DNA from: Patescibacteria group bacterium
Lineage (GTDB): Bacteria; Patescibacteriota; Microgenomatia; Daviesbacterales; UBA10151
NCBI GenBank assembly: GCA_943356485.1
Contig: CALRFD010000001.1
Location: 137,716-201,715 of the forward strand
DNA: 64,000 nucleotides
Direction: 5' to 3'
The translations under genes were made by a program, and so were the position numbers. This document shows positions 7,559 to 64,000 of this stretch, one piece after another (the first letter of the stretch is position 1; each line of letters begins with the position of its first letter). The notes beneath the pieces are model-generated. The model was not told the origin of the DNA, ran no database searches, and saw nothing but the letters and a program-made list of their open reading frames with translations.

Positions 7559-8119
7559 CTAAACCAGGTTTATCTCAGCCAGGGTGTTATGGGAATGGAA
7601 TCCCTCATTTGCCACAGATTCAAAAAGTTTGATTGAGTTGATATTAATATGATCAAAAGACATAGTCATGATCTTTTCCAGCTCCATTTCCAGCTTGCGG
7701 TCGATAAATATCTGTTCGTTGAGCTTGGCAACAGTGATATGTGGAATAAAACGCCTTTCATCAACCGGCAGGTGCAAAGCACTCAGACCGTCTTTGATAT
7801 ATTCCCTGATTAGTAAAACTTTATCTATATCGCCCTTAACTCCCACCCATAAAACATTAGCATGGTGAATATTGGGAAAGCCGTCAAGATAAGCAGGAGT
7901 CACTTCAAATGGAGAAATATCCAGGACAGAATTTCTAATAATTTCTATTAATTTCTCTTTTAAGTTATCCGGTTGCTCGCCGATAAAGGCTAAGGTCAGG
8001 TGAATTTTATCCAAATCAGTTATTCTGGCTTGAGGGATTAATGTATGCAATTTATCTTGAATAGATTGAAACTGGGGGATATTCTCACTCGGTATTTCCA
8101 GGGCGATAAAGAATCTCAT
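7559..8119 (-). CDS. thpR: RNA 2',3'-cyclic phosphodiesterase / 2'-5' RNA ligase (2H phosphoesterase, LigT/ThpR family).
   Basis: Two H-x-T-x motifs, HLTLAFIG and HITVAKL, in a 186-aa protein. Confidence 0.8.
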   Translation of the reverse strand: MRFFIALEIPSENIPQFQSIQDKLHTLIPQARITDLDKIHLTLAFIGEQPDNLKEKLIEIIRNSVLDISPFEVTPAYLDGFPNIHHANVLWVGVKGDIDKVLLIREYIKDGLSALHLPVDERRFIPHITVAKLNEQIFIDRKLEMELEKIMTMSFDHININSIKLFESVANEGFHSHNTLAEINLV

Positions 8120-8206
8120 AGTCGGATATACATATTATACTCTTACATAAATCCATTGACAAAAAAAGTATATCTAGGTAAAGTGTTGTACACCTGCACC
8201 AAAGTA

Positions 8207-9973
8207 ATGAATAGAGAGTCACCGGAAGGATCCTTTTTAGACAAAATAAACAGAGCAGATTTAAAGAAAGTTATTACTCCAACAACCCCCTTTACCCATC
8301 TTACCACTGAGGTTTATTTGCCAGAGGCTGGACTTTGGGGTAGCGGCGGATTGGGAATTTTAAATGGGGATACAGCAGGGATTGTCAGGAGGCTTGGATT
8401 TTCATACAGGCTATTGACTCTGGCTTACGCCGAGCGCACTTCACAAGAATTAGACGGGTTTCACCAAAGAATCAATCATCAGGCAGTTGCTCCTGAGAGT
8501 CGATTGGTAATAAGAGGCAGTAGTAATATCGGCGCTAATCATGATGAGATAGATCTGGGTGTTCTTGGTTCTAGTGATTATCCGGTTGTTGGATTATATG
8601 AAAATGGTTTGAAAAGTGCCTATTGGGGCAGTAGAGATAGTGACCATAGGTTATATCAGATGGCTGTTTTGGGTTTTGGGGGATATCAAGTTCTCCATCG
8701 GGAAGGAGTTGAACCATCATTTATTAGGTTGGATGAAGCCTCCTCCTCATTGTTTGCTTTAGCTAGACTGGATGGCTATATAAAAAACATACAGGCGCGT
8801 GGTATAGAAATTACCCCGGTAATATTTAACTTTATTTTAAAAGGAGCTAGAAAATCAGTTGGGTATACTAATCACACATTAGTTCCGGCCTCAGTTTCGA
8901 CTTTTGACCAGCGTCAGGTAGAAAGTTATATTTTCCCGAATTTGCAAAGCGATCTAATAAAGGATTGGCTAATAGATATGATGAACCAAACAGGCCGGCT
9001 GGACACCAGTGTTTTGACCTCTACTTTGGCAGGGAAATATAATGGTGTGAGCCAGATGCATGCGGCAATAGCCAGCGGAAGGTTTTACCGCGTTGATGGT
9101 ACACCGGTTAATTTTTCTGCCATCACCAATGGTGTTGATATGCAAAGGTGGACTTATAAAGACCTCTACGATCTTTATAGAGATGGAATTATAGATTGCT
9201 ATGAGTTGCCGGAAGTAGGCTTTGCAGGAAAAATAGAAAATTTGCCGGTTGAAAGACTATATCAAATTAAACAAGAAGCCAAGCAAGAATTGCTGGATTT
9301 TTTGAAAGGGAGAGCAAACCAGTATGAGCAAGCGATTGATATCCCGGGTAACGCAACTGTTGTTTGTTGGGGGAAAAGGATGGCAGATTATAAAAGGCCG
9401 GAATTACTTTTGGAAGATAATGACCGACTAAAGCAGATATTAGTTGAACAGAATATGCACGTACTTATTACCGGTAAGGCGCATGAAGAAGATCATAAGA
9501 TGAGAGGTTTACTACATGATATATTAACCAGGATCAATCAGGATGAAGTACTAAAACAAAGGATGCATTTTGTAGTCGATTATGATACTGCGCTGGCTGA
9601 AAAGTTGGTTGCAGGGGTTGATATCTGGCTGAATGTGCCAGAAGTAGGTAGGGAGGCTTGCGGAACATCTATCTGGAAGGCTTTGGCAAATCTTTCCACA
9701 ATAGTCGCGACAGAAGATGGTGGAATAGCAGATATTAAACCTGCGGTCTATCTGCAGGTGCAAGGTGATAATAGATATGAAGAGGTAAAGTCAATGTATC
9801 AGCAGCTGGAAAATGCCGGCAGAATTACCAGAAACATTCAAAGCTGGGGTAGTCAGGTGAAAAGCCAACTTAGCGCATACTTACCGATTATTGCCGGTGG
9901 GAGAATGATGCAGGATTATTTAAACTTTGCCTTTCCTAGAAAGGCTTTAGCTCCAGACTCATATGCATATTGA
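8207..9973 (+). CDS. Alpha-glucan (glycogen/maltodextrin) phosphorylase, GT35 family, short form.
   Basis: EAGLWGSGGLGILNGD matches the E.GLGNGGLGRLA motif, YTNHTLVPAS matches YTNHT(V/L)LPEALE, and EACGTSIWKALAN matches the PLP-lysine motif EASGTSNMKFALNG. Start moved to the in-frame ATG at 8207; the track ORF 8045 would overlap thpR. Confidence 0.8.
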   Translation: MNRESPEGSFLDKINRADLKKVITPTTPFTHLTTEVYLPEAGLWGSGGLGILNGDTAGIVRRLGFSYRLLTLAYAERTSQELDGFHQRINHQAVAPESRLVIRGSSNIGANHDEIDLGVLGSSDYPVVGLYENGLKSAYWGSRDSDHRLYQMAVLGFGGYQVLHREGVEPSFIRLDEASSSLFALARLDGYIKNIQARGIEITPVIFNFILKGARKSVGYTNHTLVPASVSTFDQRQVESYIFPNLQSDLIKDWLIDMMNQTGRLDTSVLTSTLAGKYNGVSQMHAAIASGRFYRVDGTPVNFSAITNGVDMQRWTYKDLYDLYRDGIIDCYELPEVGFAGKIENLPVERLYQIKQEAKQELLDFLKGRANQYEQAIDIPGNATVVCWGKRMADYKRPELLLEDNDRLKQILVEQNMHVLITGKAHEEDHKMRGLLHDILTRINQDEVLKQRMHFVVDYDTALAEKLVAGVDIWLNVPEVGREACGTSIWKALANLSTIVATEDGGIADIKPAVYLQVQGDNRYEEVKSMYQQLENAGRITRNIQSWGSQVKSQLSAYLPIIAGGRMMQDYLNFAFPRKALAPDSYAY

Positions 9974-10538
9974 ACAAGAAGGAAATACCTTAGCAGGACA
10001 AGTTTGGGAGAAACATGAACTAACACAAAAAGCCTCTTTGGCCAAAGAGGCTTTAGTCAGGTTACTCTCAGAAGAAGTAGTAGATGGTTTAAGGCATTAC
10101 TTTGGAGCTCCACAGCCAGAGTCAGGAGTCTTTTTTGATAAGCAGTTTGGAAATGTTGGTATAACAATTAATCCAGGATTTAAAGTTCCCCAGTCAGAGC
10201 CGGAACTATTTTTTGGCAGACAGTTTAGCCTAGGAAATAATTCAGATTCTCACTGGGAATTTTGCCGTTCTGGCGGATTCCGCCAGGTTATATTTGAAAC
10301 AAACCAGAATACTGCTTTGGGTGACCGGAGTTTAAGGAGGTTTATGATTAGAGGTTCTCATCCTGAAAATAGATCCGGTGAGTGGGAAGTTGAATTTATA
10401 ATCGGAGGATCGGGAATTATGAAAAGAGAAAATAGAGAAGCATTAATTTTTGAGCAGGCAGACGCTTTACTAGTTTTAACTATTTTAGGTGGAATTAAGG
10501 ATCAGCTTGAAAGATTAAAGTTAAATAAAAGAAGATAA
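9963..10538 (+). CDS. Hypothetical protein (191 aa).
   Basis: ORF overlapping the phosphorylase stop by 11 bp. No motif recognised. Confidence 0.4.
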   Translation: MHIEQEGNTLAGQVWEKHELTQKASLAKEALVRLLSEEVVDGLRHYFGAPQPESGVFFDKQFGNVGITINPGFKVPQSEPELFFGRQFSLGNNSDSHWEFCRSGGFRQVIFETNQNTALGDRSLRRFMIRGSHPENRSGEWEVEFIIGGSGIMKRENREALIFEQADALLVLTILGGIKDQLERLKLNKRR

Positions 10539-12032: not shown

Positions 12033-14373
<2,341 letters not shown>

Positions 14374-18840: not shown

Positions 18841-19782
18841 TTATTTCTTAAGAGATTCAATAAATTTTTCTAAGTCAATTTTATCAATCCTAATAAATTT
18901 TCCTCCAAGTTTAACTGCTTTTAAATCTCCACGCCTTACATACCTTCTCACACTCTCTGGATCAACCTGCAAAAGCTTTGCTACCTCATCTGTTGTGTAA
19001 AAACGTTGATCCAAAGCTGGCTCTTCTGCACTTACTCTTCCTGGCTCAACTGTCTCAAGATAAATATCCAAAGATCTATCTACTGCTTCAAGCATTAAAT
19101 CATAATAATCAACTAGATCATTTTTTGTCTGGCCTTTTTCTAGGGAGTTAATATATTCACTGCGATCTTCTTTGCGAATGATAGCTGAAGGGAAACCAGC
19201 TTGCATCAGAAGTAAATTTAGTAATAATCGTGCAGTTCTCCCATTGCCATCAACAAAAGGATGAATACTAACTAATTTATAATGAGCATCGATAGCAATT
19301 TTAACAGGATGATCAGAATTATCACTTTGTAACCAGGCAATAAATTCATCCATTAATTCCGGTACTTTTAGAGGATTAGGTAAAATTGTTTCTGAACCTC
19401 GTAGACGCACGGCCACGGTTCGGTATCTGCCTTTGTTTATATCATCAATTTTATTTAAGATAATGCTATGGATATCCAAGATATCTTTTGCAGTTAATTC
19501 TTGTCTTTTTTTGTTAACGAGGGTTTGAATATAGTCAAAAGCTTTTGCATGATTAATTGCTTCTTGATGCTCTGTTAAGCTTTTACCTTTAACAGTAATA
19601 CCTTCTTCCACCACCATGGCTGTTTCTTGGCGTGTTAAAGTATTGCCTTCTATAGCATTTGAGGTATAGGTTAGTTCTATCCGGAACCATTCTTCGAGGT
19701 TTTTAATAAGCTCATTTTGGAGTGGTTTGTAGCTATCTAGGTGTTGTTTTTTAGCTTGTAACTTAAGTAATTTATTATCCAT
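18841..19782 (-). CDS. Fic-family protein (AMPylase/phosphocholine-transferase fold) with a C-terminal excisionase/MerR-type HTH.
   Basis: Fic motif HPFVDGNGRTARLL. The C-terminus YTTDEVAKLLQVDPESVRRYVRRGDLKAVKLGGKFIRIDKIDLEKF resembles excisionase-family DNA-binding HTH. Confidence 0.85.
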   Translation of the reverse strand: MDNKLLKLQAKKQHLDSYKPLQNELIKNLEEWFRIELTYTSNAIEGNTLTRQETAMVVEEGITVKGKSLTEHQEAINHAKAFDYIQTLVNKKRQELTAKDILDIHSIILNKIDDINKGRYRTVAVRLRGSETILPNPLKVPELMDEFIAWLQSDNSDHPVKIAIDAHYKLVSIHPFVDGNGRTARLLLNLLLMQAGFPSAIIRKEDRSEYINSLEKGQTKNDLVDYYDLMLEAVDRSLDIYLETVEPGRVSAEEPALDQRFYTTDEVAKLLQVDPESVRRYVRRGDLKAVKLGGKFIRIDKIDLEKFIESLKK

Positions 19783-23171: not shown

Positions 23172-23177
23172 GTCTCT

Positions 23178-23243
23178 TCCCACCCTTCGGGTGGTTTAGC
23201 CCACCTTGCCGGTGAGGCAGACTTCGCACCTATTCTTTTTTGG
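23178..23243 (+). repeat. Copy A of a ~66-bp two-hairpin + U-tract element, about 90% identical to 59471-59536.
   Basis: CCACCCttcgGGTGG (UUCG tetraloop hairpin), TTGCCggtgaGGCAG hairpin, then CTTTTTTGG. Confidence 0.7.
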
Positions 23244-23436
23244 GAAATAGGATAGAAAACTATCTCACCTTGGGGGTCTTAGACTCTTAAGGGAGAGCCG
23301 ATTCGGCTGAGCTCATGGCCTAAGCCCTCAGGCTCAGACTCAAGTGAGGTGTAGAATACCTGCCGGCAGGCAAGATACAATCATGCGAACTGATTGTATC
23401 AAGCACGGAATAACATTTTGAAATAAGCTCTAAATT

Positions 23437-45221: not shown

Positions 45222-46578
45222 AGAGAGAGAAAGTTCAGTCAGAGGAGTAAATGAAAATTTGTCGGATTTTTATAAATCCTGGGGAGCATTTGATATCTTT
45301 GAGAAAACGCTGGATCAGCTACCTCCGGACTGGTTAAAAATCTTAAACATTGCCAGAAATCTACTAGACGGGAAAAGAATTCCTGGAGTCAACCTTCCTT
45401 CAACTGTCATGGCTCTGGTAGAGAAGGATCAGGAAATAGTTTTTGAAAAAAGATATATGACCAGAAAATGGCAGCAAAAATCCATCCTACCAGCCACCAG
45501 CATTGATGTTAAAAATCTGGAAGATTTATCTCAATTGCCTAAAGTATTGCCAGCCCACCTCCTGCTGCAGGGCGAAGCGCCGGAAATCTTTGCTTATCGG
45601 GCTCTGACTCATTCTCTACCAATAGCCGAGATGCAAAAACCAAGAGCAATAACAGAAGAAAAATCAGAAACCTTGATGGAACTTGTACCAAAGGCAAGAG
45701 AAAGAACTTCTATGCGGCAAAGAGTCTATGCTTTAATGGATGTTTCTCTCTCAATGAAATCTAATTACAAATTAATCTTTTCCAAAGCTGTCATGTTGGC
45801 TTATTTGGCAAAAGCCCACGAGGAAGGATCAGAGGTTTATTTCCGAGCTTTTGCCGGCAGTGTCGGGGATCTGGTAGCCTGCATCTCTCCTGAGGATTTT
45901 CCTGCTTTGGCAAAGAGGATCTTAGGATACAGGGTCTATCATGGTACTGATATTAGGTATGCTCTCACAACTGCAGTTGAAGATATTTCTAGGATGGAGA
46001 GATTAACTGACAGTAGAAGAGCTAAAACTGAGGTTTTGCTAATATCAGATGGTGAAAGCTATACCCCTATACCCCTGATGCCTAAAAATATAGCTTTGCA
46101 TACCCTGCATTTAGTCGGAGGAGGCGAGGAGTTTATATTAGATAAAGAGTTAAGGCAAATGAGTAACACTTACACCAGGATAGATACAGGAAATTTAATG
46201 CTGCCAAGTATTTCAGAGGAGGCTTGGTTTATGTTTGAGGAGATTGAGAGGCTGGAAGATCAAACAAAAGGTCTGACAGATTCAGAGATGAAATACGATA
46301 GAAGACTGCAGCAAAGAGTTGAAGCTATAAGAAAGCATACAGAAGCATATAGAAAAATCGATTCCAGCGAGAAAGTTAGGGAAAATGCCGGCAGAGCGCA
46401 AAAACTGCATGATAAAGTTTCCTTAGAAAAAGCAGAGGAAAGATTAAAGAAAAAATTAGAATTAATAAGGTATTTTATAAAAAAACTTATGCAAAAAATT
46501 AAGTCTTTCCGATTGCCTAAATTTGACAGAAAGAAAGTATTAGCCGGGAGTTTATTTGATTTTAGAATAAAGGACTAG
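45214..46578 (+). CDS. von Willebrand factor A (vWA) domain protein, ViaA-like partner of the MoxR ATPase.
   Basis: MIDAS motif in RVYALMDVSLSM (DxSxS), then a Thr and LLISDGES. Overlaps the MoxR gene by 8 nt (coupled). Confidence 0.65.
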   Translation: MAKERESSVRGVNENLSDFYKSWGAFDIFEKTLDQLPPDWLKILNIARNLLDGKRIPGVNLPSTVMALVEKDQEIVFEKRYMTRKWQQKSILPATSIDVKNLEDLSQLPKVLPAHLLLQGEAPEIFAYRALTHSLPIAEMQKPRAITEEKSETLMELVPKARERTSMRQRVYALMDVSLSMKSNYKLIFSKAVMLAYLAKAHEEGSEVYFRAFAGSVGDLVACISPEDFPALAKRILGYRVYHGTDIRYALTTAVEDISRMERLTDSRRAKTEVLLISDGESYTPIPLMPKNIALHTLHLVGGGEEFILDKELRQMSNTYTRIDTGNLMLPSISEEAWFMFEEIERLEDQTKGLTDSEMKYDRRLQQRVEAIRKHTEAYRKIDSSEKVRENAGRAQKLHDKVSLEKAEERLKKKLELIRYFIKKLMQKIKSFRLPKFDRKKVLAGSLFDFRIKD

Positions 46579-47521
46579 GATTACCTATTACCTTAACATT
46601 ATTTGTAGTTTGATTTGCTACTTCTTCCAAAGTTATTCCTTTTAACTCTGCAATCAGCCTTGCAATTTCTAAAACTGCAGATGGTTCGTTTCTCTGCCCC
46701 CGTTTGGATTGGAGAGGTAGGAAGGGGCAATCAGTCTCCAGGCAAATTTTATCCAAAGGCAGAATTTTAACAGCCTCTCTTAAGTATTCATTTTTAGGAT
46801 AGGTTAGAGTTCCTCCAAATGACACTAAAACATTAGACATTTTGAGTATTTGGTGAGTGGTTCTGGTCAAACCACTGTAGCAGTGGAAAATAGCCGGGTA
46901 ATCACCTATTAAATTTAACGTTTCATCCCAGGCTTCGCAGTTTTCTGGATTTTTAGAGCGGTCATCCCGGCAGTGAACTATTAAAGGTAAGTCTAGCTTT
47001 TTAGCCAGATCAATCTGGGCTTGAAAAAGTCTTCTTTGTAGCTCTTTTTCGTGATTGTGAGAAAGTTTACCGGTTCGACTGAGCTCACCGTCGAAGTCCT
47101 GAACTTGTTTCAGGGTGGCAATCTCTGTTTCTCTAAAGTAATAATCCAGCCCGCATTCCCCAACAGCGATAACCTTTTTCGGATTTTCTCTATAAATTTT
47201 TTCCAGTTGAGTAATGTCTTCGTTGACATTTTTGCAACGATCGTCGTATTTTTGTCCAGGTAAGGAATAATTTATAGCCTCATGCGGGTGAATACCGATT
47301 GTTGAATAAACCTTCAATCCTGGAATGTCTGACAGTTTACCGGTTCGACTGAGCTCACCGCCGAAGTCCTGAGCTTGTCGAAGGGCTTTTTTCGATGATT
47401 CAATATCTACCCCAACATTTATAATGGTAGTTACACTGGCATCAAGAGATCGTTTTATAACTTCATCAAAATCCGGTTTAAAACTGTCCCAATATAAATG
47501 GGCATGGGTGTCTATCAGCAT
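46562..47521 (-). CDS. tatD: TatD-family metal-dependent deoxyribonuclease. Carries two in-frame ~48-bp repeat insertions.
   Basis: MLIDTHAHLYW, GIHPHEA, AVGECGLDYY, LIVHCRDD and the C-terminal DCPFLPL. Duplicated inserts encode QDFGGELSRTGKLS and QDFDGELSRTGKLS. Confidence 0.85.
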   Translation of the reverse strand: MLIDTHAHLYWDSFKPDFDEVIKRSLDASVTTIINVGVDIESSKKALRQAQDFGGELSRTGKLSDIPGLKVYSTIGIHPHEAINYSLPGQKYDDRCKNVNEDITQLEKIYRENPKKVIAVGECGLDYYFRETEIATLKQVQDFDGELSRTGKLSHNHEKELQRRLFQAQIDLAKKLDLPLIVHCRDDRSKNPENCEAWDETLNLIGDYPAIFHCYSGLTRTTHQILKMSNVLVSFGGTLTYPKNEYLREAVKILPLDKICLETDCPFLPLQSKRGQRNEPSAVLEIARLIAELKGITLEEVANQTTNNVKVIGNPSPLF

Positions 47522-56351: not shown

Positions 56352-57521
56352 ATGGCTACCCCAACTATTTTGATTTGTCCAAACTGCAAAAAAGAAATCT
56401 CTGTTGATGAAGCGCTAAAGGGTCAACTTGAAGATCAGATAAAAGCACATCTTCGGGATGAGTATAACCAAAAGTGGGTTGAAGAAAAAAAGAAACTCAC
56501 CCAGTCTGTTGAAGAAAGTATTAAAAAAGAATTACTTGAGCAGTCAAAAAGAGAAAAAGAAGGATTAGAGGAGCAAATAGAAAAACAAAAAAAAGAGAAT
56601 GATGAATTTCGACAAAATGAACTTGAACTCCGTAAAAAAACCCGGGAGTTGGAAGAAAAAGAAAAAAATCTGGAACTGGAAAAGCAAAGACAGATAGATG
56701 AAGAACGTAAAAAGATTCAGGAAAAAACAGAGACAGAAGTTTCAGAGAAATTTCACTTAAAAGAAAAAGAGTATGAACAACAGATGGAGGCCATGAAAAA
56801 GTCTTTGGAAGAGGCTCAAAGAAAAGCGTCTCAAGGATCACAGCAACTGCAGGGTGAAGTGCTGGAATTGGAGCTGGAAGAAATATTAAAACGGGAATTT
56901 CCGGTAGATGAAATTCTGCCGGTTGGAAAAGGTATAAGGGGAGCAGATATTGTACAAAGAGTATTTAATAAATCAGGTAAACACACTGGTACGATTGTTT
57001 GGGAGAGTAAACGTACCAAGGGTTGGGAAAAAAAGTGGGTGGAGGATTTAAAGGTAAATATGCTCTCGTCTAAGGGAGATGTGGCAGTTTTAGTATCAAT
57101 GACTTTACCGGAAGAGATTAAGGCCTTTGGTTTTAAAGACGGAATATATGTTTCCAGTTTTGAATGTTTCCTGTCGGTTGCGTTTTTACTTAGAAAATCC
57201 ATTATTGATCACCACGCAGTTAAGCAGTCAGTGGTGGGGAAAAACGAAAAAATGGAGATGGTATACAACTACTTTTTAAGCCCGGAGTTTCAGCAAAGAG
57301 TATCAGCCATAGCCGAGGCCTTTACAGCGATGAAGGCAGATTTAGATACCGAAAAAAGAGTGTTTGCCAAACTTTGGGCGAAGCGGGAAAAAGAAATTGA
57401 AAAAGTGATTCTTAATACCTCCTCTCTGCACGGTGAACTGCACGGCCTGATTGGCGATGCATTGCCAAAAATAACAGCACTGGAAACAGATGCTTTGTTG
57501 TCAGAAATTAATGAGGTTTAG
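56352..57521 (+). CDS. DUF2130-like protein: N-terminal zinc-ribbon (CPNC), long charged coiled-coil, and a C-terminal restriction-endonuclease-like domain.
   Basis: ICPNCKKEI, then an ~150-aa E/K-rich coiled coil, then GKGIRGADIVQRVFNKSGKHTGTIVWESKRTKGWEKKWVEDLK...AVLVSMTLP. Domain assignment is from memory of the DUF2130 architecture. Confidence 0.45.
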   Translation: MATPTILICPNCKKEISVDEALKGQLEDQIKAHLRDEYNQKWVEEKKKLTQSVEESIKKELLEQSKREKEGLEEQIEKQKKENDEFRQNELELRKKTRELEEKEKNLELEKQRQIDEERKKIQEKTETEVSEKFHLKEKEYEQQMEAMKKSLEEAQRKASQGSQQLQGEVLELELEEILKREFPVDEILPVGKGIRGADIVQRVFNKSGKHTGTIVWESKRTKGWEKKWVEDLKVNMLSSKGDVAVLVSMTLPEEIKAFGFKDGIYVSSFECFLSVAFLLRKSIIDHHAVKQSVVGKNEKMEMVYNYFLSPEFQQRVSAIAEAFTAMKADLDTEKRVFAKLWAKREKEIEKVILNTSSLHGELHGLIGDALPKITALETDALLSEINEV

Positions 57522-57687
57522 CTTGTCATAGCAATCTAATCGCCAATAATCGTCCGTTATTTTTTCGAACCATCAGTTCGATTAGCTTGTCATAAAGCCC
57601 TAATCATCACAAATCGACCGTTCGTAAATCTATGCAAATCTAGGTATTTCGTGCCTAAAATCATTATAACCGTCGGTTAACCGTGGG

Positions 57688-58200
57688 TTGCACCTTTCTC
57701 CAAAAATTTATACAATAAAACCAATGCCTCAGGACACAGGTTCGATACATTCAGATACCGCCAAACGCGAGCCGCGCGGCGAGCACGGAGAGTTTGCGCG
57801 CACCCATATCGTAGCGCAAAATACACCCAGCCTACCCTCCCGCATATGGGATTATTTGTCCAAAATAAGTCTTAAAAAGCTCATTACTACCATGGGTCTA
57901 ATCTCCATAATTGCCACCAACGGGCTATCACTTACTTTAATCGAGCGACTTTTCCCTCATTCCTCACCCATTTTCCATCGTCAAGTGGCTCACCAGGGGA
58001 TCTTAAACACATCTGGAGGAGGGATTTATACTCTCACATTGACGGATAATTCGGTGTATACTTTGAATCTTAAGCCGTCTGGTAATCTAAAAAATTTGAA
58101 AAACCTAAACGAAGTCGTAGTCCGAGGCAATCTAACTTTCACTCCATATCTCATCGACAATGCCGAAATCTACCCAGTAAATATCTCCACTACTGATTGA
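57688..58200 (+). CDS. Doubtful ORF. The track start is TTG; the 5' part spans a GC-rich patch; a 101-aa product from the ATG at ~57892 is possible.
   Basis: No SD. The N-terminal segment encoded by GC-rich DNA (57760-57830) is atypical for this genome. Confidence 0.25.
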   Translation: MHLSPKIYTIKPMPQDTGSIHSDTAKREPRGEHGEFARTHIVAQNTPSLPSRIWDYLSKISLKKLITTMGLISIIATNGLSLTLIERLFPHSSPIFHRQVAHQGILNTSGGGIYTLTLTDNSVYTLNLKPSGNLKNLKNLNEVVVRGNLTFTPYLIDNAEIYPVNISTTD

Positions 58201-58231
58201 ACCAGTTTTGCACATCTGCTTTTGTCAGAGT

Positions 58232-59395
58232 CTATTTCCTAAATAATGCGACATAATCCTTCATCTCAAATAGCCTATTCCTAGAATAGCCTGTTTTTTC
58301 CTGTAGAATATCTAAGCCCGTAAGATCTGATACAAGATCACTTGCGGCTTTAAAACTTACACCCAGAACTTTACTCACATTATTTACACTTACGATAGGT
58401 TGAGAGAATAGATATATCAGCAACTGTCTTGCTTTTGGAACTTTTCTTCCTAAGGTAGTAATTTTATTATCATATTGCTCACGAAGAGTAATAATATTCT
58501 CGAATTTTTGTTTCCCCTTATTACTAGTCACTACAACTCCTTCAAGAAAGAAACGAACCCACCCTTCGAGATTATTCTTCTGTCTGACTTCATCAAGGGT
58601 CTCGTAATATGATTGACGATATTCCTCAAAATAGTCAGAAATATACAAAACTGGTTTAGTAAGGAAGCCACGCTCTATTAGTTGTAAAGTGATAAGTAGC
58701 CGACCGATGCGGCCATTTCCATCGAGAAATGGATGAATAGTTTCAAATTGATAATGCATAATAGCTATTTTTATCAGTATTGGTATATTTAACGAAGAAT
58801 TATGCCAAAATTTTTCCCAATCAGAAAGCAATCCTGCAACTTCTGTGTGTTGAGGGGGGACGTAATGAGCTGTACGAATAGAAGAACCTCCAATCCAGTT
58901 TTGGCTTGTGCGAATTTCACCAGGTAATTTATGCTTACCTCGAACGCTAGTTAGAAGACGAGAGTGAGTGTCTTTTATGAGCCTTACCGAGACTGGTAAT
59001 CTTTTAAGTTCTTCAACAGACCAGTTCATGGCATTGATATAATTTCTAACCTCTCGCCAATCGTCACGACGCTCAGGATCTATTTCGTCTTCTGGGAGCA
59101 ATACCTCATCTATTTCTGTACGGGTGCCCTCAATTCTGGAGGAGCTTACAGCTTCTGATTTAACATGCATCTGAATGAAATAATCAATATCAGGTACGAG
59201 CCTTGAATACGCATTCAATTCACCAAGTAGGCGTGTCGCCTCTTCTAAAAGTGTAATAGTGGATTGGTCATTAGCTATAAATGGCCTATTGATACCAGAC
59301 GGCAGAAAACTGGTATACTCAGCATCCATGCCGACAAGTATTTTTTGATTTGTTCCTGCAGTAAAGTCTTTCATACTGTAAATATAACACATCAT
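58232..59395 (-). CDS. Fic-family protein (second copy).
   Basis: Fic motif HPFLDGNGRIGRLLITLQL in a 387-aa protein. Confidence 0.8.
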   Translation of the reverse strand: MMCYIYSMKDFTAGTNQKILVGMDAEYTSFLPSGINRPFIANDQSTITLLEEATRLLGELNAYSRLVPDIDYFIQMHVKSEAVSSSRIEGTRTEIDEVLLPEDEIDPERRDDWREVRNYINAMNWSVEELKRLPVSVRLIKDTHSRLLTSVRGKHKLPGEIRTSQNWIGGSSIRTAHYVPPQHTEVAGLLSDWEKFWHNSSLNIPILIKIAIMHYQFETIHPFLDGNGRIGRLLITLQLIERGFLTKPVLYISDYFEEYRQSYYETLDEVRQKNNLEGWVRFFLEGVVVTSNKGKQKFENIITLREQYDNKITTLGRKVPKARQLLIYLFSQPIVSVNNVSKVLGVSFKAASDLVSDLTGLDILQEKTGYSRNRLFEMKDYVALFRK

Positions 59396-59470
59396 ATTTT
59401 ACTTTGCAAGTATAAAGTAAAATAAGGATTTCTATATTATAGATCACAAACGCCGATAATTTCCCAAATT

Positions 59471-59536
59471 TTCCACCCTTCGGGTGGATTAGCCCGCCTT
59501 GCCGTCGAGGCAGGCTTTGCACCTTTCCTTTTTTGA
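59471..59536 (+). repeat. Copy B of the ~66-bp two-hairpin + U-tract element, followed by a CCACCTCC...GGATTAGGTAG box at 59542-59573.
   Basis: CCACCCttcgGGTGG, TTGCCgtcgaGGCAG, CCTTTTTTG. About 90% identical to 23178-23243. Confidence 0.7.
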
Positions 59537-59581
59537 AATTATTCCACCTCCAAAGGGGATTAGGTAGGCACAGTTGACGTC

Positions 59582-59608
59582 TTGACTTCGGGTTGTTTTC
59601 GGTATAAT
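59582..59608 (+). promoter_or_regulatory. Sigma70-like promoter TTGACT-15-TATAAT upstream of the Bro-N gene.
   Basis: TTGACT at 59582-59587 and TATAAT at 59603-59608; ATG at 59617. Confidence 0.5.
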
Positions 59609-59616
59609 GTAATCGT

Positions 59617-60132
59617 ATGGATGCTAAAGTTGCATTATTTGAAAACCAACGAATTCGTAGAGTTTGGCATAACAACGAGTGGTGGCTTTCTGTGGTTGAT
59701 GTTTGTAAAGCATTGACTGGTAGTCCTGATTCCGGGTCATATTGGAGAAAATTAAAACAAAGATTAAAGGAAGAAGGAAGTGAAGTCGTGACATTTTGTC
59801 ACGGGTTGAAGTTAGAAGCACCTGACGGAAAATTACGTGAAACTGATTGTGCTAATATAGGGAGTTTTGATTTAAAAGTTGATGAATATAAAGATTTAAA
59901 AGGTTTGGATAAAGAAAATTTACGTGATCATATGAATGATATTGAATTAATTTTGACAATGTTAGCAGAAGCAACTACAACTAAAATTCATAAAGGCAGA
60001 GATTCACAAGGTTTCCCAAAGCTTAAAAAAGATGCCAAAGATGGTGGTGGTGTTGCAGGAAGGACACGTAAAGATATTGAGCAAGTAAGTGGTAAAAAAG
60101 TTATAAGTACTAAAAATTATTTACTAAAATAA
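59617..60132 (+). CDS. Bro-N (phage antirepressor N-terminal) domain protein.
   Basis: LFENQRIRRVWHNNEWWLSVVDVCKALTGSPDSGSYWRKLKQRL matches the Bro-N pattern. Confidence 0.6.
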   Translation: MDAKVALFENQRIRRVWHNNEWWLSVVDVCKALTGSPDSGSYWRKLKQRLKEEGSEVVTFCHGLKLEAPDGKLRETDCANIGSFDLKVDEYKDLKGLDKENLRDHMNDIELILTMLAEATTTKIHKGRDSQGFPKLKKDAKDGGGVAGRTRKDIEQVSGKKVISTKNYLLK

Positions 60133-60201
60133 ATTCATTCAAGAACAATTAGACGAAGTATTCATACCTAATTATTATCCCAAGTAGATTATAATCAACT
60201 C

Positions 60202-60843
60202 ATGAGTTTTCCACAGTATTTGTATAGGTTTTTTAATCAAAAAGATCATAGAGATCAGTTTATTCAAGGATTAATTCGATTTGGGAGATTAGAGGCATAT
60301 AAAGAAATCGAAGATGAACAAAGGAAAGATAAAGATGAGGGAGATCCAAGAGGAAAATATAAAACAGATAAACAAATTTATCTCAAAATAAGCAATCAAA
60401 CAGGAAAGGTAGTAGAGCATGGAATTAAGTTAGGAGATATTAATATATCAGGATATAGTCCAAATAATTTCTTTATTGTTTCGGCAACAGACGAGAAAGT
60501 TAATGTAGAAAAGATATCAGAAAAATTTGGTAAGTATGTAGTAAAAATTAACAATCCTCAGAAATTGCTTGATTTATTAAATAAAAACCGTAAATTCCCT
60601 TGGAGCGTAGGCAAGATTGTATTAGAGCGAGTGAAATATGATAAGGATAATTATTTAGAGATAGAAGAAAGTAATCCTCATTTACCATTTGGCTACTATT
60701 ATGCTCAAAAACCCCAAATGTTTTCTGATGAAATGGAGTGGAGATTTGTGTTAATAGGAAGTGGTATTGATGAGCTGGAAGATAAATTTGTAGTTATAGA
60801 GATAGGTTCTATAGAGAATATAATTACCCGTATAGATTTATGA
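60202..60843 (+). CDS. Hypothetical protein (213 aa).
   Basis: ORF only. Confidence 0.4.
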   Translation: MSFPQYLYRFFNQKDHRDQFIQGLIRFGRLEAYKEIEDEQRKDKDEGDPRGKYKTDKQIYLKISNQTGKVVEHGIKLGDINISGYSPNNFFIVSATDEKVNVEKISEKFGKYVVKINNPQKLLDLLNKNRKFPWSVGKIVLERVKYDKDNYLEIEESNPHLPFGYYYAQKPQMFSDEMEWRFVLIGSGIDELEDKFVVIEIGSIENIITRIDL

Positions 60844-60869
60844 TTAGACACACATAGAAATAGACGTCT

Positions 60870-61220
60870 CTATCTTTTTTCCCCAGATATTGTAGCTACT
60901 CTCTCCATAAGCCTCTGATTCTCTTCCAGTTGTGTCTTATAATCCTTTAAAAGGACATTTCTTTCTTCAAGTCTTTGTGAATAATCTTGATAGGCAGCGT
61001 TATTTATTTGAAATAAACTAACTATCATTTGTACAAAGGCTATAAAAACTACTACAACTACACCGCCCGTAATCCAACTAATATCTCTAAATTTATCACT
61101 TAATCTTTTTTCTGAATACTCACTAGACTGTCTTACGCTCTCAGTGATAACTGCCAATTCTTGTATAGTAAATTGATTAGTCTGTTCTTGAGGAGTATTT
61201 TGTCTTCTTGGTGGTGTCAT
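60870..61220 (-). CDS. Hypothetical membrane/coiled-coil protein (116 aa).
   Basis: Transmembrane helix GGVVVVVFIAFVQMIVSLF, then a coiled coil. Confidence 0.35.
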   Translation of the reverse strand: MTPPRRQNTPQEQTNQFTIQELAVITESVRQSSEYSEKRLSDKFRDISWITGGVVVVVFIAFVQMIVSLFQINNAAYQDYSQRLEERNVLLKDYKTQLEENQRLMERVATISGEKR

Positions 61221-61441
61221 TTGTAAACTCCTATAATTTCATTTATTCCACCAGGTTGTTCTACAACTGAAAAATCCTTACCCATAAATAGGGTAAAATC
61301 AATACCGGCAAAAGATACTCCTCGCGTAAATCTCACGCCCGGCCCAAATTCTACTCCACCCACCCGTATTCTAACTAAAGGCTCAACGCCGCCATCAAAA
61401 TTGATTTTAAATAGTTGATTGAAGTTCTTTTTTACTGGCAT
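61217..61441 (-). CDS. Hypothetical small protein (74 aa).
   Basis: ORF overlapping the downstream gene by 4 nt. Confidence 0.3.
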   Translation of the reverse strand: MPVKKNFNQLFKINFDGGVEPLVRIRVGGVEFGPGVRFTRGVSFAGIDFTLFMGKDFSVVEQPGGINEIIGVYK

Positions 61442-61498
61442 ATACGAATACTTAACCTGAAACTAATTCTAACAGATATATAATTAATCTTATAGCTA

Positions 61499-61597
61499 GA
61501 ATAATTCCTTTATTTGAACTTTTAAGACTTTAGCTATTTTTTCAATAGTTTCTAGAGAAGAGGACTTTCTTCCTTGCTCAATTTGGCCTAATTGCAT
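61499..61597 (-). pseudogene. Truncated XRE-family HTH repressor fragment (32 codons: MQLGQIEQGRKSSSLETIEKIAKVLKVQIKELF).
   Basis: Matches only the C-terminal half of a Cro/C1-type HTH (...IERGKRNPSLETLLKIAKALGV..ELF). There is an in-frame stop immediately upstream of the Met. Confidence 0.35.
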
Positions 61598-61601
61598 TTG
61601 A

Positions 61602-61859
61602 TTATTTGTACTTCTTTACGGTAATTTTATATGGATTAACTGTTCCTGTTTTGCCTGTGTATGGATTGTAATTTCCTTTTGTTGAAAAGTTATCAATTTT
61701 TGTTTTATTTGGAGAGGATTTAAAATGAGGGGCAACATATGTGCCTTTTTTCGTAACGTATCCTTTGACGCGAGTAGCAGCGCTGACAGAAGATACGTTA
61801 ATAACGAAGATTGAAACAGTTAATAAAAAAGCTACAAAAATACTAAATATTTTTCTCAC
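61602..61859 (-). CDS. Small secreted protein (85 aa) with a signal peptide.
   Basis: MRKIFSIFVAFLLTVSIFVINVSSVSA, then a K/Y/T/G-rich mature region. Confidence 0.35.
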   Translation of the reverse strand: MRKIFSIFVAFLLTVSIFVINVSSVSAATRVKGYVTKKGTYVAPHFKSSPNKTKIDNFSTKGNYNPYTGKTGTVNPYKITVKKYK

Positions 61860-61926
61860 GAGCCAATTGTATCTAATATGATTAATTTAAACAATCTCGC
61901 ATTTCAAGTGGTATAATGTCGGTATT

Positions 61927-62250
61927 ATGACACACAAGAATATATCATTGCGCTGTATTACTTATCAAGAAAAAGATGGCTCTTTTACAGGGGTTTGTCT
62001 TGATTTGGACATCGTGGAAGAGGGACATATTAGCTTAGAAGAGGCAGTTCTAAGCATTAACGATGCTATTTTATCTCATTTTCAAGCTGCTGCGAAGTTG
62101 GATTTTCCCAAAGAGTTGGTCACTAGATTAGCGCCAAAAGAGTATTGGAACAAACTAAAAGAAGTTACCCAAGAAAACCCATCTCACAAAAAGTTTGAGC
62201 CGTTCCAATTTTTTACCAGACAATTTACTCCTGGTTTGATGTATGCCTAA
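61927..62250 (+). CDS. hicB: HicB-family antitoxin.
   Basis: LRCITYQEKDGSFTGVCLDLDIVEEGHISLEEAVLSINDAILSHFQAA fits the HicB N-terminal fold pattern. Overlaps the downstream HicA gene by 8 nt. Confidence 0.55.
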   Translation: MTHKNISLRCITYQEKDGSFTGVCLDLDIVEEGHISLEEAVLSINDAILSHFQAAAKLDFPKELVTRLAPKEYWNKLKEVTQENPSHKKFEPFQFFTRQFTPGLMYA

Positions 62251-62488
62251 ATATAAACCTCTTAAATATCGTGATGTGGTCACTATTCTAAAAAATCTAG
62301 GTTTTATTCAAGAAAGCGGTACTGGTTCTTCACACCAAACATGGGTTCTAAAAAGAAACGGCATGAGTTTTGCTGTAACGGTTGCTTTTCATGGAAATAA
62401 TCAGGAATTTAGGCCGGGTACTTTAGGATCAATGATTCGCCAAAGCGGATTTACAAAAGAAGAATTTTATAAAGCTCTCAAAAACTAA
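62243..62488 (+). CDS. hicA: HicA-family toxin (mRNA interferase).
   Basis: KYRDVVTILKNLGFIQESGTGSSHQTWVLKRNGMSFAVTVAFHGNNQEFRPGTLGSMIRQSGFTKEEF matches the HicA/YcfA pattern (..GSH..F......TVP.H...L..GTL..I...G). Confidence 0.65.
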   Translation: MPKYKPLKYRDVVTILKNLGFIQESGTGSSHQTWVLKRNGMSFAVTVAFHGNNQEFRPGTLGSMIRQSGFTKEEFYKALKN

Positions 62489-62500
62489 AATATCACACTC

Positions 62501-62532
62501 CCCACCTCCGAAGCGGATTAGGTAGAGACACA
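62501..62532 (+). repeat. CCACCTCCGAAGCGGATTAGGTAGAGACACA box, related to 59542-59573.
   Basis: About 80% identical to CCACCTCCAAAGGGGATTAGGTAGGCACAG. Both lie about 45-90 nt upstream of a gene start. Confidence 0.5.
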
Positions 62533-62588
62533 TTGGATAAGGCTCACGTTTAATCCGTGACTTAAGTTATAATTGGGCAAAGAATATT

Positions 62589-64000
62589 ATGAATAATGAT
62601 AATTTTCAATCAGCTTATAAAATTTTAAACCCCGCTCAAAAAGATGCTGTAGACAGCATCGAAGGTCCGGTGATGGTAATTGCCGGGCCGGGTACTGGCA
62701 AAACCCAAATACTCACACTTCGCATTGCCAATATTCTACTAAAAACTCAGGTTAATCCGGAAAATATTTTAGCTTTAACTTTTTCCGAAAGCGCAAGTTT
62801 TCAAATGCGTGAAAGGCTTTCGAAAATAATTGGTACAAGTGCTTTTAAAGTAGATATTTCTACCTTCCATTCTTTTGCAAATGAAATTATTAAAAATTAT
62901 CCGGATGAATTTTCCAACCTTTTATCTTCAGAAAATATTACTGAAACAGAACAGATAGAGTTAATAGAAAAATTAATTGAATCAATAACTTTAAAAGTGT
63001 TACGTCCGTACGGCGATCCGCTGTACTATTTAAAAGATATTCTAAGTGCAATTAATGATTTGAAAAAAGAGGGTATTACTTCGGAAAAGTTGGTAAAGGC
63101 TATAAATAAACAAAAAGCAGATTTTGATTTGATAGAAGATTTATACCATGAAAAAGGAAGGTATAAAGGTGAGATGAAGGGCAAATATCAGGATCTAAAA
63201 AAGGATATAGAAAAGTCAGAAGAGTTTTCATTGGTTTTTGAAAATTACGAAAAGGCTTTAGTTAAAGAAAGAAAATATGATTTCAATGATATGTTGCTTG
63301 AAGTTATAAAAGCTCTTGAATTCAATAAATCTTTATTACTTAGGATACAAGAAAAATATCACTATATTCTAATTGATGAACATCAGGATACCAATGCTGC
63401 CCAAAACAAACTAGTTGAACTCATTGCGTCATTTTATGATATACCGAACTTATTTGTGGTGGGTGATGAAAAACAGTCAATATACAGATTCCAGGTGGCA
63501 TCTCTTGAGAATTTTTTATATTTTAAAAATTTATATCCGCAAGCAAGATTAATAAATTTAGAAACAAATTACCGTTCGCACCAACTGATTTTGGACGCCT
63601 CTCAAAGCATGATAGAAAAAAATATTTCTGCAAATATTTTACCCCAAAAAAACTTACTTGCAGACAGTAGCTTTAAAGGAGAAAAGATTAATCTGGTACA
63701 ACTTTCAGATTTTCATCTGGAATATGAATATATTGCCAAAAATATATCAGAGAAAATTAAAGCGGGTGAAAACCCTTCATCAATAGCAGTTCTTGCAAGA
63801 AGAAATATGGATTTATCTCCCCTTGTGTCAGTACTCACGAGACATGGAATTAAATCTGTCATTGCCTCAGATCAGGATGTATTGGCTGATCTGCAAGTAC
63901 AAAAATTAATCATGTTGTTGGAATCAATCAATAATCCCTTTGATGAGGTGTTATTAATTCGGGCAATGCACATAGATTTTTTAAATATTGATCCATTTGA
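62589..64000 (+). CDS. UvrD/PcrA-family (SF1) DNA helicase, N-terminal ~470 aa; continues beyond the window end.
   Basis: Manual translation gives MNNDNFQSAYKILNPAQKDAVDSIEGPVMVIAGPGTGKTQILTLRIANILL...ILALTFSESASFQMRERL...TFHSFANEII (motifs I, Ia, II). Not in the ORF track because it is open-ended. Confidence 0.8.
   Translation, partial: MNNDNFQSAYKILNPAQKDAVDSIEGPVMVIAGPGTGKTQILTLRIANILLKTQVNPENILALTFSESASFQMRERLSKIIGTSAFKVDISTFHSFANEIIKNYPDEFSNLLSSENITETEQIELIEKLIESITLKVLRPYGDPLYYLKDILSAINDLKKEGITSEKLVKAINKQKADFDLIEDLYHEKGRYKGEMKGKYQDLKKDIEKSEEFSLVFENYEKALVKERKYDFNDMLLEVIKALEFNKSLLLRIQEKYHYILIDEHQDTNAAQNKLVELIASFYDIPNLFVVGDEKQSIYRFQVASLENFLYFKNLYPQARLINLETNYRSHQLILDASQSMIEKNISANILPQKNLLADSSFKGEKINLVQLSDFHLEYEYIAKNISEKIKAGENPSSIAVLARRNMDLSPLVSVLTRHGIKSVIASDQDVLADLQVQKLIMLLESINNPFDEVLLIRAMHIDFLNIDPF

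Follow-up and report, generated by a model that had tools for sequence, protein, structure and literature searches.

This study concerns a 5-kb block of accessory genes in the genome of an uncultured Daviesbacteria bacterium (Patescibacteria), which we analyzed within a 64-kb stretch of its DNA (the window; 64,000 nucleotides, GC 38%). The block lies between the gene for a DUF2130 protein, with its stop at 57521, and the gene for a UvrD-like helicase, which starts at 62589, and ten open reading frames (ORFs) are found in the 5.07 kb between these two points. In order, they encode a small membrane protein (orf158), a Fic protein, a Bro-N-family protein, orf213, orf116, orf74, a remnant of an XRE-family repressor, a small secreted protein (orf85), and a HicB-like protein with its HicA partner. 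The coordinates of these genes and of the non-coding features around them are collected in Table 1. An earlier account, drawn from the letters of the DNA and their translations (here the sequence-only reading), had taken the block for a decayed prophage or integrative element. Its list of genes was largely borne out, with the corrections given below. We consider it probable that the block is an accessory defence and toxin-antitoxin island at a recombination hotspot, built up by the accretion of small, independently mobile cassettes, some of which are decaying.

Table 1. Genes and non-coding features of the variable segment and its flanks, in window coordinates
Feature	Position	Strand	Basis
DUF2130 protein, 389 aa (left flank)	56352..57521	+	Pfam DUF2130 E 4.5e-64
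41-nt direct repeat, copy 1, overlapping the DUF2130 stop codon	57518..57558	+	Repeat search; nhmmer E 6.9e-7
41-nt direct repeat, copy 2, with GATTAG...CTAATC inverted ends	57582..57622	+	nhmmer E 1.4e-7
Short-word array (AAATC / AACCG-CGGTT, ~10-11-nt phasing), then promoter-like TTGCAC-N17-TACAAT (57688-57716)	57623..57716	+	Sequence reading, TRF
orf158, small bitopic membrane protein, 158 aa, Patescibacteria-type family	57724..58200	+	Six homologues, 53-66% identity
SoFic-like class II Fic AMPylase (predicted), 387 aa	58232..59395	-	Pfam Fic_N + Fic + HTH_13
Orphan 66-nt double-hairpin and T-run element	59470..59535	+	86% identical to 23177-23242
Box copy A, CCACCTCCAAAGGGGATTAGGTAGGCACA, directly to the left of the Bro-N cassette	59544..59572	+	
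Bro-N cassette promoter (predicted), TTGACT-15 nt-TATAAT	59582..59608	+	Conserved upstream of closest homologues L092, L093
Bro-N/PADLOC PDC-S13-family gene, 171 aa, internally deleted	59617..60132	+	PDC-S13 E 1.7e-60 in two stretches; phrog_15286
orf213	60202..60843	+	phrog_13198 E 7e-21
orf116, membrane protein with coiled-coil tail	60870..61220	-	Transmembrane segment read from translation; gene call in L002
orf74, small protein, ATGA overlap with orf116	61217..61441	-	Gene call in L002
XRE-family repressor remnant, C-terminal helix-turn-helix half	61496..61597	-	Pfam HTH_3 positions 25-55 of 55, E 6e-6
orf85, small secreted protein, 85 aa	61602..61859	-	Signal peptide read from translation; phrog_29674 E 1.9e-20
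HicB-like antitoxin, predicted N-terminal HicB fold	61927..62250	+	AlphaFold2 model and Foldseek; 8-nt overlap with hicA
HicA toxin, 81 aa	62243..62488	+	Pfam HicA_toxin PF07927 E 9.3e-12, 45.3 bits (cut-off 27); phrog_353 'toxin'
Box copy B, CCACCTCCGAAGCGGATTAGGTAGAGACA, between hicA stop and helicase start	62502..62530	+	
UvrD/PcrA-like helicase (right flank)	62589..64000, runs off window	+	Pfam UvrD-helicase E 5.7e-65

Loci fetched for comparison are given L-numbers, and the phage and viral sets were 50,697 phage records and IMG/VR. Short contigs assembled independently from further runs of this study (L001, L002, L055 and L056) were 99.9-100% identical to the window. They span all of the island junctions except 60223-60478, so that the arrangement is not an assembly artefact.

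Relatives of the site were found by scanning species-representative genomes with the DUF2130 protein, which returned 51 loci. We compared 17 proteins of the window by tblastn with the 16-21 kb around the site in six Daviesbacteria-type metagenome-assembled genomes (L003-L007 and L011). The gene order metG, DUF2130, UvrD-like helicase was kept wherever the contig reached, and in relatives with a DUF2130 gene a UvrD-like gene always came next, either directly or past variable cargo. Identity to the window was highest in L003 (DUF2130 76%, helicase 74%). In the remaining relatives the DUF2130 proteins were about 48-56% identical (48-51% for the full-length matches of L004-L007; the match in L011 is partial), and the helicases of L004-L011 were 56-58% identical. 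The two flanking genes are separated by 20-136 nt in L004, L005, L007 and L011, by 1.3 kb in L006, and by 2.6 kb in L003. None of the island proteins had a match in any of the six loci. The wider gaps hold other genes: LexA, an N6_N4 methyltransferase and an MvaI/BcnI endonuclease in L003, and an Asp/Glu racemase and an NYN protein in L006. DNA homology with L003, the closest relative, ends at 57454 and restarts at 62579 (blastn, as for similar comparisons), and we take 57522-62578 (5.06 kb) as the variable cargo segment.

Because the site is empty or differently filled across relatives, the DUF2130-helicase junction is a hotspot with changing cargo. This presence/absence polymorphism, with an empty junction or other cargo in L003-L007 and L011, bears out the claim that the segment is an accessory insert. 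The left neighbourhood is also rearranged between L003 and the window. The small membrane protein beside metG was found in L003 and L006, and in L003 ORFs that resemble ruvC, ruvA and ruvB (7863-9974, named by reading translations) intervene between this gene and DUF2130, which are adjacent in the window.

The composition of the segment was compared with that of its surroundings. The 5-kb windows over the island have the most deviant tetranucleotide usage in the 64 kb (z 2.8-3.5), and GC content at third codon positions (GC3) of the cargo genes ranges from 0.19 (Bro-N) to 0.46 (orf158), against ~0.30-0.35 in neighbouring core genes. This fits an accessory insert moderately well. The helicase flank is itself AT-rich. 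A block conserved in synteny among relatives, with host-like composition, was not what we found: it is absent from six of six, and its tetranucleotide usage deviates as given above.

The homologues that we could trace for the cargo genes each occur elsewhere alone, in unrelated neighbourhoods, which argues that the block is an accretion of cassettes and not one element. Defence and toxin-antitoxin genes are enriched among the cargo: a SoFic-like gene, a PDC-S13-like gene (deleted) and a putative HicAB pair here, and a restriction-modification system in L003. Several of the cassettes appear to be toxin or anti-phage genes that were acquired separately. We infer that cassettes arrived and left by illegitimate or short-repeat-mediated recombination and not by the action of an integrase.

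The largest cargo gene encodes the predicted SoFic-like AMPylase. Over profile positions 5-359 of 361 it matched the PADLOC SoFic profile (E 7.1e-117), and residues 53-385, including the C-terminal part, matched SoFic in the PDB (9tch/3eqx; E ~3e-35). The active-site motif HxFx(D/E)GNGRxxR is intact (HPFLDGNGRIGR, aligned with HPFIDGNGRTGR of SoFic), as is the inhibitory motif (S/T)xxxE(G/N), which reads SSRIEG compared to SSEIEN of SoFic 9tch. The architecture is that of SoFic of Shewanella oneidensis (PDB 3eqx, 3zcn, 9tch), with an inhibitory N-terminal helix (SxxxEG), a core (HPFxDGNGRxGR) and a C-terminal winged helix. The score of the island protein lies below the NCBIfam SoFic equivalog cut-off (183 bits against 550), which makes it a distant member of the SoFic family. 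SoFic is a single-gene system whose toxicity as an AMPylase and protection against phage have been tested experimentally; class II Fic proteins are defined by an N-terminal inhibitory helix motif (PMC12249575). The small gene downstream of E. coli Sofic encodes the 47-aa AS1 antitoxin (PMC12249575), whereas the island has no room for a co-directional AS1-like gene; the Fic stop lies 31 nt from the converging orf158. By analogy, the island protein would act like SoFic, being auto-inhibited by its N-terminal helix and, during phage infection, AMPylating host targets and aborting the infection. Its true start may be a downstream Met, and the public gene call begins one codon later than the 387-aa ORF. 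It had been noted as the second Fic-domain protein of the window, and this was correct, the first being encoded at 18841-19782(-). Another ORF of 387 aa, at 1576-2739, was considered as the first Fic gene and rejected (best BLASTP to the island Fic, E 0.34).

The Bro-N gene is one of the decayed cargo genes. What had been called a Bro-N antirepressor-like protein was recovered as a member of the PDC-S13 family (PDC-S04 of PADLOC also matches), with a weak Pfam Bro-N match below the cut-off (E 1.5e-3, 19.5 bits vs 25.6). By alignment, this copy lacks 96 central codons (288 nt), in frame, with the junction at about 59858/59865. The lost segment lies between CANI and GSFDLKV and includes the second half of the Bro-N domain, which accounts for the low Pfam score. 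The blastn alignment of the region to L092 jumps 1911-2198 of that locus, and the deletion is also found in the independent assemblies L055 and L056. The family has more than 8000 homologues, and the 119 non-identical ones among the matches listed are 260-298 aa long and come from many phyla. Among these listed matches the best local segment is mostly about 66-80% identical, up to 88%, and the N- and C-terminal thirds are overall 66-75% identical to homologues. The closest homologues stand solitary among housekeeping or glycosyltransferase genes and have the same promoter. The island copy shares with them its flanking thirds and cassette promoter and differs from them by the missing codons. 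DNA homology to the cassettes of L093-L095 starts at 59582, the first nucleotide of the promoter, and the sequence conserved upstream of the homologues is TTGACTTCGGGT...GGT(A/T)TAATGTAAT. This conservation suggests that the promoter travels with the cassette. It had been called a strong promoter; the -10 hexamer is a perfect TATAAT (59603-59608), but TTGACT (59582-59587) is spaced 15 nt from it.

Some sources name members of this family 'DNA-damage-inducible protein D' or 'prophage antirepressor'. Full-length members were compared with E. coli DinD and rejected as equivalogs (E about 1e-3 to 1e-4; cut-off 242 bits). A conserved two-gene module of Fic and Bro-N was likewise rejected, full-length Bro-N homologues being beside a Fic gene in none of nine places inspected. 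Upstream of a Moranbacteria homologue (L063, 4205-4300) there is a perfect TTATCCACA, the DnaA-box consensus.

The last two cargo genes were expected to be a HicB-HicA pair in antitoxin-first order. HicA is assigned by Pfam, well above the cut-off. The protein encoded upstream of it had no Pfam or PDB match by sequence, and its assignment as HicB is supported by fold alone. Its family comprises 77 representatives, of which 3 of 57 aligned sequences touch HicB_lk_antitox, and the family profile reached HicB proteins of the PDB at E 0.33-0.61. The AlphaFold2 model (pLDDT 84) consists of an N-terminal beta-beta-beta-alpha unit, two short helices and a strand. In a Foldseek search with this model, matches 1-7 were HicB (including 6g1c, 6g26, 4p78 and 6g1n) and match 8 (3k6q) was a putative antitoxin, with probabilities up to 1.0, a best E of 9.8e-3 and TM-scores of 0.53-0.64. 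The model thus predicts that the upstream partner of HicA has the HicB fold. No ribbon-helix-helix (RHH) or helix-turn-helix (HTH) DNA-binding domain was recognised in it by family scan or in the model. The pair resembles type II HicAB systems in its HicA domain and in an overlapping partner with a predicted HicB N-terminal fold. It differs from them in lacking a detectable sequence match to HicB families and a recognisable RHH/HTH domain in that partner, and in the order hicB-hicA, the usual order in the HicAB family being hicA-hicB. If the pair is functional, loss of a labile HicB would leave HicA free to cleave mRNA, which could either provide abortive defence or stabilise the island through addiction.

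The remaining cargo genes are small. As had been claimed, several encode membrane or secreted proteins, with signal or transmembrane segments read from the translations. There are six homologues and one near-identical copy of orf158, all of full length and with 67 invariant columns, together with 26 more distant metagenome loci; the homologues lie in unrelated contexts, and the protein has no family in Pfam, PHROG, NCBIfam or PADLOC. The same four scans gave no family for orf116 or orf74. The 17 homologues of orf213 (46-64% identity) are all unannotated, and its AlphaFold2 model (pLDDT 52) is unusable. One of these homologues is beside a cluster of a serine recombinase, an HTH protein and DUF6602 (L057), and another is near a PIN-MazE pair (L058). 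No viral relatives were found for orf213, orf116 or orf74, whereas orf85 has five viral-contig relatives (40-53% identity). The truncated XRE repressor fragment was confirmed: only HTH_3 positions 25-55 are present, and there is an in-frame stop seven codons upstream of the ATG.

The left edge of the segment carries direct repeats that had been suspected of being att-like. The repeats are present, described before as two imperfect copies of about 38 bp that are 63 bp apart; each measures 41 nt, the two are 76% identical, and their starts lie 64 nt from each other. A 28-mer of copy 1 recurs in L069 at 26 of 28 positions, and copy 2 is in a position homologous to that of a motif upstream of orf158 homologues in L064, L065 and L073. 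An nhmmer profile built from seven copies of the motif found further copies in L066, in L067 (L068 has the same sequence) and in L075, at E 1e-6 to 1e-3. Each of these further copies lies upstream of an orf158-family gene and shares its strand, and none was found at E<1 in about 65 other loci (~0.95 Mb). Because the motif travels with orf158 genes, these repeats at the left edge are not att sites. The GC-rich patch noted at this edge, with its 10-bp palindrome GCCGCGCGGC (57771-57780), is also real, but it lies inside the conserved coding gene orf158, where it encodes the conserved N-terminal motif of the protein.

The motif is followed by arrays of short palindromic words, with a period of ~11 nt, that are specific to each genome: TAACGG/CCGTTA, TGTGG/CCACA, AATGG/CCATT and, in the window, AACCG/CGGTT (Tandem Repeats Finder, TRF, reports period 11 at 57667-57689). 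The loci are 57518-57716 in the window, L064 6715-6930, L065 2660-2830, L066 2315-2470, L067 1950-2030, L069 455-560, L073 776-925, L075 1795-1960 and L079 190-345. The word arrays, which are approximately in helical phase, precede the promoter of the gene, and a TTGCA-N17-TA.A.T arrangement directly before the ATG is also found in L064, L065 and L079. One and the same GC-rich hairpin (GCCCCGCAAACCCATACCCCCTTGTCGG.GGGGT) comes after the arrays in L066, L075 and L079, and a T-rich tail follows it in L066 and L079. Strong folding of the element was seen in some genomes (z -4 to -5), and no Rfam family matched it. A structured RNA at the 5' edge of the window was considered and rejected, the fold z being -1.1 to -1.6 on both strands; the window copy is weak, perhaps degenerate. 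A possible, still tentative, reading is that the repeats are an undescribed conserved non-coding element (~26-45 nt, with ATTAG...CTAAT ends) that moves with orf158 genes, acting as an operator- or centromere-like array for a factor of changing specificity, or as a structured RNA or DNA hairpin. If so, the arrays would fit an operator/centromere-like or hairpin element that moves together with its gene, and this palindromic element is the only part of the locus that might lead beyond the ordinary. In L073 (776-1114), the motif and word array are followed by an orf158-family copy without the membrane segment and most of the domain, a second example of decay.

The island had also been described as bracketed by repeated hairpin and box elements. 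This did not hold for the whole island, since there is no box at the 5' edge and the pair of boxes encloses the Bro-N-to-HicA sub-block alone. The two box copies are 25/29 identical, and the window contains the 24-mer CCACCTCCRAAGSGGATTAGGTAG at two places, 59544 and 62502 (0 expected by chance). The box is absent upstream of the helicase in the six relatives (L003-L011) and in all other fetched loci. It was therefore rejected as a conserved helicase operator, being absent before the helicase in these six, and neither the box nor the 5' motif had an IMG/VR match, by which both were rejected as phage att sites. The two copies may mark one recombination junction; the box may be a junction scar, a dispersed repeat or a shared operator. 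Looser relatives of the box (CCACC...GG(A/T)TTAG) begin the 66-nt double-hairpin element, which comprises GC-rich hairpins (CCACCCTTCGGGTGG and GCCTTGCCG..GAGGCAGGC) and a tail (TTYGCACCT.TCCTTTTTTG). Its copy at 23177-23242 is directly after a gene, and a shortened relative without the second hairpin follows the first Fic gene (18826-18780(-)). These two stand directly after stop codons, like terminators, and the orphan copy at 59470 has no preceding gene on the + strand.

The decayed-prophage account would have a single mobile element inserted between DUF2130 and the helicase, of which, after loss of the integrase and of most other genes, only morons and regulators remain (Fic, Bro-N, the XRE stump and HicAB). 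Decay is indeed visible, in the truncated XRE repressor and the internally deleted Bro-N gene, both of which are typical of phage regulatory regions. Other features are also shared with cryptic prophages: the block is accessory and missing from relatives, has a toxin-antitoxin pair and small secreted and membrane proteins, six of its proteins have PHROG families, orf85 and Fic have relatives on viral contigs, and an imperfect 29-nt direct repeat surrounds the Bro-N-to-HicA block. However, the PHROG categories were 'unknown function', 'transcription regulation' and 'moron/toxin', and no structural, packaging, replication or lysis category was found. Similarity to the phage records by blastn was limited to two short patches of 62 and 93 nt, and the box and 5' motif are not in IMG/VR. 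The att-like repeats sought at 57.5 and 62.5 kb did not appear, there being no repeat common to both ends. The integrase had been said to be absent from the window, and we agree within the limited sensitivity of the test: a phmmer search of all the window's stop-to-stop ORFs of 60 aa or longer, with a tyrosine integrase from the Candidate Phyla Radiation (CPR; L060) and 90 residues of a serine recombinase (L057) as queries, gave 0 matches at E<=1. No recombinase family was found among the cargo proteins in Pfam, PHROG and NCBIfam scans. Moreover, the Bro-N family is a very widespread solitary chromosomal gene with its own promoter, two relatives have non-phage cargo at the same site, and composition is heterogeneous within the block. 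We regard a single decayed prophage as unlikely.

Two further explanations seem more improbable still. The block could be ancestral Daviesbacteria DNA that was deleted independently in other lineages and not gained here. Patescibacteria have streamlined genomes that lose genes readily, the relatives compared are distant (~50% identity), and the orf158 family appears confined to CPR-like contigs, all of which would suit loss. But the junction is tight in four genomes and holds different, non-homologous cargo in two, no island protein occurs anywhere in the 16-21 kb around the site in relatives, and the composition is deviant and heterogeneous; in addition, Bro-N homologues are 70-78% identical across unrelated phyla, which indicates recent horizontal spread. 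We give ancestry followed by loss very little credence. Equally hard to credit is capture guided by the box (CCACC...GGATTAGGTAG) as an integron- or att-like recombination site, at which the block 59573-62501 was inserted, or which that block duplicated. The 29-nt box does occur exactly twice in 64 kb (0 expected), in direct orientation around this block, the left limit of homology to Bro-N cassettes falls directly beside copy A, and related CCACC...GG(A/T)TTAG hairpin elements stand at other gene ends in the window. Against this, no recombinase is in view (with the limited test above), the box is missing from relatives' helicase upstream regions, from all other fetched loci and from viral contigs, and the block itself is a mosaic with genes on both strands and a pseudogene. 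With two copies only, the box could equally be a dispersed repeat that was retained by chance, or an operator common to both sites.

The accretion of defence and toxin cassettes thus remains the reading that we prefer, and several points weigh against it. The sole experimentally validated defence family in the cargo is that of Fic, whose score falls below the NCBIfam equivalog cut-off (183 vs 550 bits), PDC-S13 is a candidate family only and its island copy is deleted, and four cargo genes have no known function. The hotspot is defined by seven genomes, including this one, and because the relatives other than L003 are distant (flank proteins ~50% identical), gain and loss are not strictly polarised. 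The AT-rich helicase flank (GC 0.32) itself adds to the compositional deviation. The window includes 1.4 kb to the right of the island, and an integrase farther downstream on the source contig is possible.

Compared to known defence islands and hotspots, this one lies between conserved flanks (DUF2130 and the UvrD-like helicase) whose junction in relatives is empty or carries non-homologous cargo, and its cargo includes a toxin of the abortive-infection type (SoFic-like) and a toxin-antitoxin pair, with restriction-modification in the nearest relative. It differs in being very small (5 kb), in a site without integrase, transposase or tRNA, in its Patescibacteria (CPR) host, and in its cargo, about half of which lacks a defence annotation and two genes of which are truncated. 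The RNA scans found no tRNA and no Rfam match in the window, and in the island region Rfam gave none at the gathering threshold or at E<=1 except for one chance miRNA match. A hotspot at which defence and toxin genes are swapped, with no integrase visible, is thus kept even in a genome as small and streamlined as that of a Patescibacteria bacterium. The locus provides a concrete example of SoFic-like and HicBA genes in Daviesbacteria that is useful for surveys of CPR immunity, although it is not surprising.

Some observations touch on DNA damage. The 24-nt box is upstream of both the Bro-N gene (DinD-like in some sources) and the UvrD-like helicase, lexA is in the same hotspot in L003 (11214-11828), just upstream of the helicase, and in a Moranbacteria genome (among loci L061-L063) the genes for a Bro-N homologue and a UvrD-family helicase stand side by side in divergent orientation. 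In E. coli, dinD and uvrD are SOS genes. It is conceivable that the box is a shared damage-response operator, but it is not palindromic and is missing from the relatives, and the window has no LexA.

Two other repeats were seen elsewhere in the window. The ORF 46562-47521(-) contains a 63-nt direct repeat (47053-47115 and 47323-47385; 86% identical, 270 nt apart), pointing to an internal duplication or to a protein with repeat domains. The GC-rich palindrome CCTGCCTGCCGGCAGGCAGG has four copies (2478-2668, 13632-13651 and 23355-23374) in this AT-rich genome, and these may be another dispersed hairpin family.

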